From a virus (lineage: Duplodnaviria > Heunggongvirae > Uroviricota > Caudoviricetes): 52,691 nucleotides of DNA. Position numbers and translations under genes: made by a program. The DNA lies in IMG/VR virus record IMGVR_UViG_2872174743_000006, positions 1 to 52,691 of that record; one strand, 5' to 3'. Under the pieces are notes generated by a model. That model made no database searches. It was given only the letters and a program-made list of their open reading frames with translations, and had not been told where the DNA came from. Below are positions 47,198 through 48,727 of this stretch, piece after piece; position 1 is the stretch's first letter, and each line of letters starts with the position of its first letter.

Positions 47198-47442
47198 ATG
47201 TTCAATAAAGCTACAACTCTTGACTGTCTCGAAGAACTGAAAAACCTCGGCAGCCTCATTACACTAATAGCAAAAGCAACACCTGATGCTACGCTCTCTA
47301 GCGATATAGAGTCATGCGCAGGACTGGCATGGGATATGACAAATAGCATATCCAGAAAGCTATCGTCAGCAATGCTTTTACAGAACAAAAATTCTGCAAT
47401 CAACAACCGTCTTCGCACCCAACGCGAAGCCTGCGGCTTAAC
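47198..47442 (+). pseudogene. first early-left gene, truncated by IS911
   Basis: ORF MFNKATTLDCLEELKNLGSLITLIAKATPDATLSS... runs into the IS911 end at 47443. Confidence 0.4.
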
Positions 47443-47450
47443 TGAAGTGG

Positions 47451-48290
47451 TCAACAAAAACTGGCCACCGAGTTAGAGTTTTTCCAGTATCGATTTTCCG
47501 ATTCGTTTGGGGGTAACCCACCGTTATATTCGTGCGGTCTTAGTGCGCTGTAATATCCAACGATATAGTCCGTTATGGCGTGAGCTGCCTCGCTGAAGCT
47601 TACGTAACCCACCACCGGCATCCATTCGTTCTTCAGACTCCTGAAGAAGCGTTCCATTGGGCTGTTATCCCAGCAGTTTCCGCGCCGGCTCATACTCTGT
47701 CTGATCTGGTATCGCCACAATAACTGCCGGAACTGCCTGCTCGTATAATGACTGCCCTGATCGCTGTGGAACATCACCCCGCCGGGCTTACCACGGGTTT
47801 CCCATGCCATTTCCAGCGCTTTCATGGTGAGCCTGCTGTCCGGCGAGAACGACATGGCCCAGCCCACTGGTTTTCTTGCGAACAGGTCGAGAACAACGGC
47901 GAGGTACGCCCAGCGCTTACCCGTCCAGATACAGGTCACATCACCGCACCACACCTGATTTGGCTCGGTCACGGCGAACTGCCTTTCAAGGTAGTTAGGG
48001 ATAGCAACATGTTCATGACCACCACGTTTATTCCGGTGAGTCGGCTGCTGACAGCTGACCAGCCCCAGCTCTTTCATGAGCCTGCCAGCAAGCCAGCGTC
48101 CCATCTGGTAGCCTCTCCGGGTTGCCATTGTGGCGATGCTTCTTGCTCCGGCCGAACCATGGCTGATGCCATGTAGCTCAAGTACCTGACTGCGTAATAC
48201 AGCCCGTCTGCCGTCTGGTTTTTCAGGACGGTTTTTCCAGTATCTGTAGCTGCTGCGATGAACCCCGAACACTTGGCAGAGTGTGACCAC
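47451..48290 (-). CDS. IS911 OrfB
   Basis: 279-aa ORF with DDE region (...[13 protein letters not shown]...[22 protein letters not shown]). Confidence 0.8.
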
Positions 48291-48316
48291 AGGATAATGC
48301 GCTCTGAGTTTCCCGA

Positions 48317-48619
48317 TTATCGAGAACTGTTCAGGGAGTCTGACATCAAGAGCGCGGTAGCCTTTTTTAATATTTCATTCTCCATTTCAATGCGTTGTAG
48401 CTTTTTCCTCAGCTTACGTATTTCGATTTGTTCTGGTGTTATCGGAGAGGCTTTTGGTGTTTTGCCCTGACGCTCATCACGCAGTTGTTTGACCCATCTT
48501 GTCATTGTGGAAAGGCCAACATCCATAGCTTTGGCGGCATCTGCCACCGTGTATTTCTGGTCAACAACCAGTTGAGCGGATTCGCGTTTAAACTCTGCGC
48601 TAAAATTTCTTTTTTTCAT
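48317..48619 (-). CDS. IS911 OrfA
   Basis: [46 protein letters not shown]... (ATG 48617-48619). Confidence 0.8.
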
Positions 48620-48727
48620 TGGAGCACCTGTGTTGTTCTGAGGTGAGCATATCACCTCTGTTCAGGTGGCCAAATTCAGTGTGCCACTTCAGTGTTATGT
48701 TCAACCAGTTACTTAAACAGGTAAGAA

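Follow-up and report, generated by a model that had tools for sequence, protein, structure and literature searches.

An IS911 copy and an adjoining loss of about 1.93 kb cut the putative first early-left gene of a phiP27-like prophage

The window analysed here is the whole 52,691-nucleotide stretch of IMG/VR record IMGVR_UViG_2872174743_000006, a tailed-phage sequence (Caudoviricetes) that resembles the lambdoid prophages of the phiP27 and Shiga-toxin (Stx) phage type. Near its right end, between 47198 and 52691, all open reading frames (ORFs) run along the plus strand and are closely spaced; the string ends with the excisionase gene xis and then the integrase gene int. The first gene of this string follows a cI-like repressor gene and is cut by a copy of the insertion sequence (IS) IS911 (Table 1). 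Translation and alignment of the junction show 81 native codons plus two nucleotides, up to position 47442, followed by ten codons supplied by the IS and a stop codon at 47474–47476; residue 82 of the native protein is kept by chance at the junction. An earlier note, made from the sequence alone, had described a gene cut after about 81 codons by an IS911 in the opposite orientation. Both statements hold, as the gene is not complete before the element and the two lie on opposite strands, the gene on the plus and IS911 on the minus strand. The span 47198–48727 given in that note takes in the cut gene, the element and the 36 bp that separate it from the next gene.

The element is a bona fide IS911. 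As reference we used E. coli copies that carry the Prokaryotic Genome Annotation Pipeline (PGAP) label 'IS3-like element IS911 family transposase'; in the nucleotide comparison, 1249 of 1249 bp align with these copies at 99.8% identity. The right and left terminal inverted repeats (IRR, 47443–47478; IRL, 48656–48691) are intact, imperfect repeats with 5'-TG...CA-3' ends; they are equal at 24 of 36 positions and both begin with TGAAGTGG, so that the termini read TGAAGTGG...CCACTTCA. An OrfAB protein of 389 amino acids can be reconstructed across the A6G frameshift site. The copy thus shares with the IS911 type its termini, the orfA/orfB arrangement with a −1 frameshift at A6G and the DDE/rve domain, and its identification in the earlier note is borne out at full length by the repeats, by orfA, by A6G and by orfB. 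A second IS911 copy or fragment was not found in the window. IS911, an IS3-family element that transposes by copy-out-paste-in, was reportedly first described by Prere, Chandler and Fayet in 1990 from Shigella dysenteriae, inserted in lambda cI.

The limits of the element were verified on two E. coli copies flanked by perfect 3-bp duplications, GGA/GGA and TAC/TAC. The ends of the copy in the window are identical to those of both control copies, and with the same 1249-bp limits the 3-mer to its left is AAC and that to its right GTG, which means that there is no 3-bp target duplication. The mismatch of the flanking 3-mers that had been noticed earlier is therefore real and does not stem from misplaced ends; the terminal A at 48691 can be assigned to IS911 or to the flank alike. 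A 3-bp duplication is a property of the insertion event and not of the element. Unlike simple insertions of IS911, the present copy lacks it and is tied to a deletion of 1.93 kb of flanking DNA, and it is this adjacent deletion that accounts for the loss of the duplication.

The deletion was recognised by comparison with uninterrupted relatives. The left flank is present in 250 complete E. coli genomes, within a gene annotated as 'helix-turn-helix domain-containing protein', and the right flank in 592, upstream of a DUF4752 gene. By blastn, window positions 44029–47442 correspond to positions 2930–6343 of a locus of E. coli 266917_2 (L001) at 99.5% identity, and 48691–49363 correspond to 8278–8950 of the same locus; the 1934 bp between them (L001 6344–8277) have no counterpart in the window. 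This segment comprises the 3' half of the helix-turn-helix (HTH) gene, ORFs of 68, 62 and 193 amino acids and intergenic DNA, and the three small ORFs match PHROGs families of unknown function. The relative that is best overall (L013) has the same gene set, with a middle ORF of 60 amino acids. When the two flanks were joined and used as a query, 84 E. coli records covered at least 80% of it, and in the best 60 of these the flanks are about 2 kb or more apart and never contiguous. IS911 has replaced about 1.93 kb, with both breakpoints exactly at the IS termini, and the lesion is not a simple insertion. The earlier suspicion of an adjacent rearrangement is in this way confirmed, with 1934 bp of the closest relatives lost and the loss bounded by the IS. 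The earlier description of an interrupted first gene stands in so far as the gene is cut; it understated the lesion, as the 3' half of the gene and three further ORFs have also been deleted.

Such phages have mosaic early-left regions, and in different relatives the flanks lie between about 1.9 kb and more than 2.3 kb apart. One might thus suppose that the 1.9-kb segment was absent from this phage from the start, that IS911 made a simple insertion and that the duplication was later eroded by point mutation. Such a course of events is highly improbable. The left breakpoint falls at codon 82 of the 166 codons of a conserved ORF, and an earlier deletion would have had to end exactly at the IS site; the two flanking 3-mers, AAC and GTG, agree at none of their three positions; and the 3' half of the HTH gene is retained in every relative that has both flanks. 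A simple insertion with an eroded duplication is effectively excluded by the junction alignment.

We consider it probable that insertion was followed by an IS-adjacent deletion. IS911 would first have transposed into the early-left region of the prophage; a transposase-promoted deletion starting from one IS end would then have removed about 1.93 kb. The one intact IS that remained would thereby have come to join sequences once 1934 bp apart, hence the lack of a 3-bp target duplication. An adjacent deletion is favoured because deletions next to IS3-family elements in the long-term evolution experiment (LTEE) with E. coli have been explained in just this manner. Of 83 IS events in three LTEE populations, 14 were deletions next to an element of the IS150 group, which belongs to the IS3 family; a target duplication was missing in each of these, and each was accounted for by a simple insertion at the same site and a subsequent adjacent deletion (PMC11708052). 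The present case resembles these in that one IS is kept, there is no duplication and the deletion begins exactly at an IS terminus; it differs in that the two-step order is here a deduction and not an observation. A second element in the same prophage, IS2, shows the same pattern, with 647 bp missing and no duplication.

Several points speak against a deletion from a single inserted copy. In a precursor with IS911 at a single site, the reciprocal junctions would read IS911-IRL then AAC+AACCGCCGAACTCGCC, or ...CAATCCCCTAAGTG then IS911-IRR. Neither the IS/flank junctions nor such a precursor (IS911 with a 3-bp duplication) were found in 5426 complete E. coli genomes, the exact junction strings were not found in the species representatives of GTDB, and no precursor was present among contigs carrying the neighbouring DUF4752 gene; the searchable DNA collections hold few Shigella genomes. 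The ancestral content is taken to be that of E. coli relatives that are 98–99.5% identical, rather than being read from a direct ancestor. Finally, recombination between two IS911 copies would give an identical end product.

This last scenario deserves to be weighed. IS911 could have inserted twice, independently and in one orientation, first or second into codon 82 of the HTH gene and the other time 36 bp ahead of the DUF4752 gene. RecA-dependent homologous recombination between the copies would then have removed one of them with the intervening 1.93 kb, and the hybrid IS that remained would owe its left and right flanks to different copies. The outcome would be the one observed, namely one intact IS, mismatched 3-mers and breakpoints at the IS ends; the prophage holds at least five IS elements, its host is named Shigella in public records, and target duplications are known to be lost when IS copies recombine (PMC11708052). 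On the other hand, two independent insertions in the same orientation within 2 kb are required, no genome with either single-copy precursor junction was found and no other IS911 copy or fragment exists in the window, while the LTEE deletions of the IS150 group were explained from a single pre-existing copy. We regard recombination between two copies as possible, and clearly less probable than insertion followed by adjacent deletion.

The missing target duplication and the failure to detect a precursor allele would also fit a one-step capture, in which IS911 was joined at a double-strand break or deletion intermediate without staggered target cleavage, insertion and the 1.93-kb loss being simultaneous. 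Such events have been proposed for IS5 and IS481 (PMC11708052). For IS911 the process is hypothetical, all cases of the IS150 group in the same study were two-step, and the missing precursors are weak evidence because the collections searched contain few Shigella genomes; we therefore think a one-step origin improbable.

The gene that was cut encodes, in its uninterrupted form, a protein of 166 amino acids, in which Pfam places an HTH_3 domain at residues 72–126 (E = 3.7e-11); the comparison with an uninterrupted homologue that the earlier note had called for thus gives a protein broken at codon 82. The cut product covers positions 1–82 of 167 of phrog_4739, a family of unknown function, and the full-length protein also weakly matches 'CII-like regulator' and repressor families. 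Its closest solved structures are the DNA-binding domains of P22 C2 and of the 434 repressor. No Pfam domain was found in the 92-residue remnant. Since HTH_3 spans residues 72–126 and native sequence stops at residue 82, the break takes away almost the entire HTH domain, and the product is best regarded as a remnant of the family rather than a functional member of it.

The homologue in phage phiP27 (AJ298298) is L10. By tblastn, the L10 region is 96% identical to residues 1–132 of the intact E. coli homologue; L10 is annotated as 'unknown' and comes directly after L11, the 'putative lambda repressor', on the same strand. The window and phiP27 share the succession of cI, a short intergenic region and an L10-like gene on the same strand, and the neighbouring cro-like and Rha genes are also alike. 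They differ in that L10 is uninterrupted in phiP27 (138 amino acids as annotated), whereas the gene of the window is cut at residue 82, and in the content downstream of L10. An N-type antiterminator was considered as the identity of the cut gene and rejected, as the matches are to HTH_3/XRE, phrog_4739 and repressor-like structures and to no N family. Scans against Pfam and PHROGs gave no N-family match among the scanned early-left ORFs of the window or the ORFs of the deleted segment, and in the literature no functional data were found on phiP27 L10 or on antitermination in the phiP27 phage group. Phages of the phiP27 type would then have an uncharacterised HTH protein of the XRE type, and not an N antiterminator, at the first position behind the leftward promoter (pL).

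Several features of the immunity region point to such a position for the cut gene. The cI-like gene, for which the program-made ORF starts at 46363, is annotated as a LexA family protein in the relative L001. The 14-mer GATACTTTGTTATC from the operator-like repeats between cI and cro matches the reverse complement of 47115–47128 at 13 of 14 positions, in mirror orientation. The window contains 11 copies of the motif ARGTATCW where 3.0 are expected, a total of 11 not being reached in any of 100 shuffled sequences, and 5 of these copies fall in two short regions flanking cI; the candidate CI operator sites can also be written GATACTTTGTT(A/T)TC. Within the candidate pL with its left operator (OL), a promoter scan gave a sigma70-like site, TTGTCA (47138–47143) and TACCAT (47161–47166) with a spacing of 17, which has 9 of 12 matches. 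As a point against this promoter, sites with 9 of 12 matches are no commoner in the window than in shuffled sequences. The layout of the putative right (OR) and left operators is as expected of a lambdoid immunity region and speaks for a leftward promoter, under repressor control, immediately before the cut gene. The gene is the first after cI, and the promoter-like site and the operator-like repeats favour the place at the head of the early-left operon that the earlier note had proposed for it from its position, a placement that is supported by the sequence evidence and not proven. No terminator separates cI from the cut gene, which in lysogens may hence also be transcribed to some extent from the cI promoter.

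The early-left gene order behind the element is the same in the relatives L001 and L013. No terminator-like site was found on the plus strand of the segment of L001 that is deleted in the window, so the ancestral operon shows no sign of a break there. After IS911 the next start codon is that of the DUF4752 gene at 48728, with an intact ribosome-binding site. Translation of a pL transcript would end 34 nucleotides into IS911, leaving about 1.25 kb of antisense IS sequence to be transcribed without translation before this gene is reached. As no N-type antiterminator was detected, Rho-dependent polarity would be expected to affect the early-left genes still present, among them xis and int when driven from pL. 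Polarity of IS911 on xis and int, which the earlier note had expected, is plausible on these grounds.

The sequence does not by itself establish polarity. Terminator-like sites on the plus strand through IS911 are only weak and as frequent as in shuffled sequence; in a sliding window the C/G ratio of the antisense IS strand is ordinary, with no unusually C-rich tract; and xis and int may have their own promoter, as they do in lambda. A hybrid or outward promoter directed from the IRL end towards the DUF4752 gene was seen neither by eye nor in the promoter scan, and Rfam gave no match in or near IS911 or the pL region. Classical IS2 insertions in the early operons of lambda are polar, and their polarity is suppressed by N. 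Here too the IS lies in an early operon that appears to be under repressor control, ahead of genes that rely on read-through transcription. In contrast to the classical insertions, no N-type antiterminator was detected and the polarity would not be relieved; the gene that is cut is an XRE-type HTH gene rather than N, and the lesion includes a deletion.

The allele is widespread. At least 16 NCBI contigs carry the exact 92-residue fusion ORF; 10 of the assemblies concerned have contigs larger than 1 Mb. At six chromosomal loci about 11.5 kb of the window is matched at 99.77–99.96% identity, and IS911 occupies the same place. The identical protein is WP_000482082.1, which is listed by NCBI and UniRef under the names 'MULTISPECIES [Shigella]' and Shigella dysenteriae. 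Many 'partial' versions of 80–81 amino acids come from draft contigs and fit an assembly break at IS911. Contigs found via the DUF4752 gene have the same structure or break at the IS; one of them (L018), at first a candidate for a different upstream context of that gene, was rejected, as a scaffold gap of 10 N starts at the IS boundary. The allele is thus common to many genomes named S. dysenteriae, which fits an old, vertically inherited lesion, and it is already present, with annotation, in public Shigella genomes.

In the loci L002–L007, which carry the same allele, int is directly followed by mlrA (yehV), called at 233 or 215 amino acids, at about positions 11515–12216 of the locus; judged by this gene order, the prophage sits at the classical mlrA/yehV attachment site. 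In several of these assemblies dnaB, cI or int is also called with a frameshift, which may reflect either faulty assembly or additional decay.

Table 1. Positions, strands and characteristics of the features at the IS911 lesion and at other IS elements of the prophage (positions are those of the window).
Feature	Position	Strand	Characteristics
OR-like operator repeats, cI/cro intergenic	46343–46390		14-mer GATACTTTGTTATC at 46344–46357
cI-like repressor gene	46438–47094	plus	218 aa from ATG; HTH_3 and Peptidase_S24; phrog_4, transcriptional repressor
Candidate pL/OL	47115–47193	plus	operator-like motifs at 47122, 47149 and 47186 around sigma70-like promoter
Truncated gene, putatively first of early-left operon	47198–47476	plus	47198–47442 native, 47443–47476 IS-encoded; 92-aa product
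Left deletion/IS junction	47442–47443		L001 6343, codon 82 of HTH gene
IS911 (IS3 family)	47443–48691	minus	complete, 1249 bp; 99.8% identity to annotated copies
IS911 orfB frame	47451–48290	minus	Pfam rve / DDE integrase core, E = 1.2e-31; expressed as OrfAB via −1 frameshift
IS911 orfA	48317–48619	minus	100 aa; Pfam HTH_Tnp_1
A6G −1 frameshift site (A AAA AAG)	48362–48368	minus	IS position 324; intact
Right deletion/IS junction	48691–48692		L001 8277/8278; 36 bp upstream of DUF4752 start codon
DUF4752 gene	48728–49045	plus	ORF list, Pfam, PHROGs; 36-bp spacer after IS911
phrog_3126 gene	48999–49313	plus	PHROGs
Ead/Ea22-like gene	49300–49845	plus	ORF list, Pfam, PHROGs
Four small ORFs	between Ead/Ea22-like gene and xis	plus	ORF list
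Excisionase gene (xis)	51117–51371	plus	phrog_539
Integrase gene (int)	51405–52691	plus	ORF list, Pfam, PHROGs
IS1 (InsA/InsB frames)	2118–2815		near tail-fibre gene
Methyltransferase fragment	2817–3173		between IS1 and IS66-family element
IS66-family element	~3300–5600		TnpB-like ORF 3638–3985, transposase 4034–5572
IS600-like remnant	5816–6474		orfA intact, orfB truncated
Tail-fibre gene	6590–9406		adjoined by IS1, IS66-family and IS600-like elements
IS2	37847–39177		complete, 1331 bp; 13 bp downstream of Q-like gene stop
Q-like late antiterminator gene	39190–39597	minus	beside IS2

The IS911 lesion is one of several in a decaying lambda-like prophage, which holds at least four other IS elements, and is a case of ordinary IS-driven decay. 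The IS2 copy has different flanking 5-mers (GATAC and GTAAC). At its site an E. coli relative (L014, 99.7% identity) has the 647 bp that are missing from the window, which comprise a hypothetical gene for 205 amino acids and most of the Q-proximal intergenic region, and the IS2-adjacent deletion may have removed or displaced the late promoter region. IS911 and IS2 would each have removed flanking DNA at a regulatory hot spot, the one just after pL and the other just after Q. Together with the IS elements at the tail-fibre end, the IS911 lesion and the IS2 deletion after Q would help to lock a defective prophage in the chromosome. What is recorded here is the stepwise disabling of one prophage by insertion sequences in genomes named Shigella dysenteriae, with little meaning beyond annotation.

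A more far-reaching interpretation would make the lesion a selected 'domestication'. Loss of the pL-proximal regulator would uncouple the remaining early-left genes, with xis and int, from pL and so lock in place, next to mlrA, a prophage that confers immunity and carries lom and a nanS-like esterase; the 82-residue fragment, which is kept in all carriers, might act, for example, as a dominant-negative partner of related HTH regulators encoded by other resident prophages. We mention this as speculation and give it very little credence.

Other parts of the prophage bear on its affiliation and on its control. The late region has the layout of Stx phages, with tRNA-Met/Arg/Arg (35892–36141), STnc100 (35611–35816), an ORF for 77 amino acids and a nanS-p-like SASA esterase gene (33499–35121), all within 33499–36141 on the minus strand; stx genes were not found between the tRNAs and the esterase gene. 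Rfam detected C4 antisense RNA (45041–45128, 78.8 bits) and isrK (45153–45229, 56.4 bits) in a region on the minus strand, in the 5' part of an antirepressor-like Rha/Phage_ASH ORF (44435–45286), which suggests RNA control of an antirepressor in the early-right operon in the style of P1 and P7. At the other end of the window, a plus-strand ORF for a hexapeptide-repeat acetyltransferase of 181 amino acids (1080–1625) adjoins a minus-strand fragment resembling a tail-fibre assembly gene (1636–1893); the acetyltransferase may be a prophage cargo (moron) gene.

An independent IS911 insertion was also seen in E. coli FDAARGOS_944 (L011; NZ_CP065613.1, 913560–915408), where the element is flanked by a clean TAC duplication and splits the excisionase gene xisR beside an integrase gene. 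As this copy splits xisR, IS911 has also struck the excision module of another E. coli prophage.

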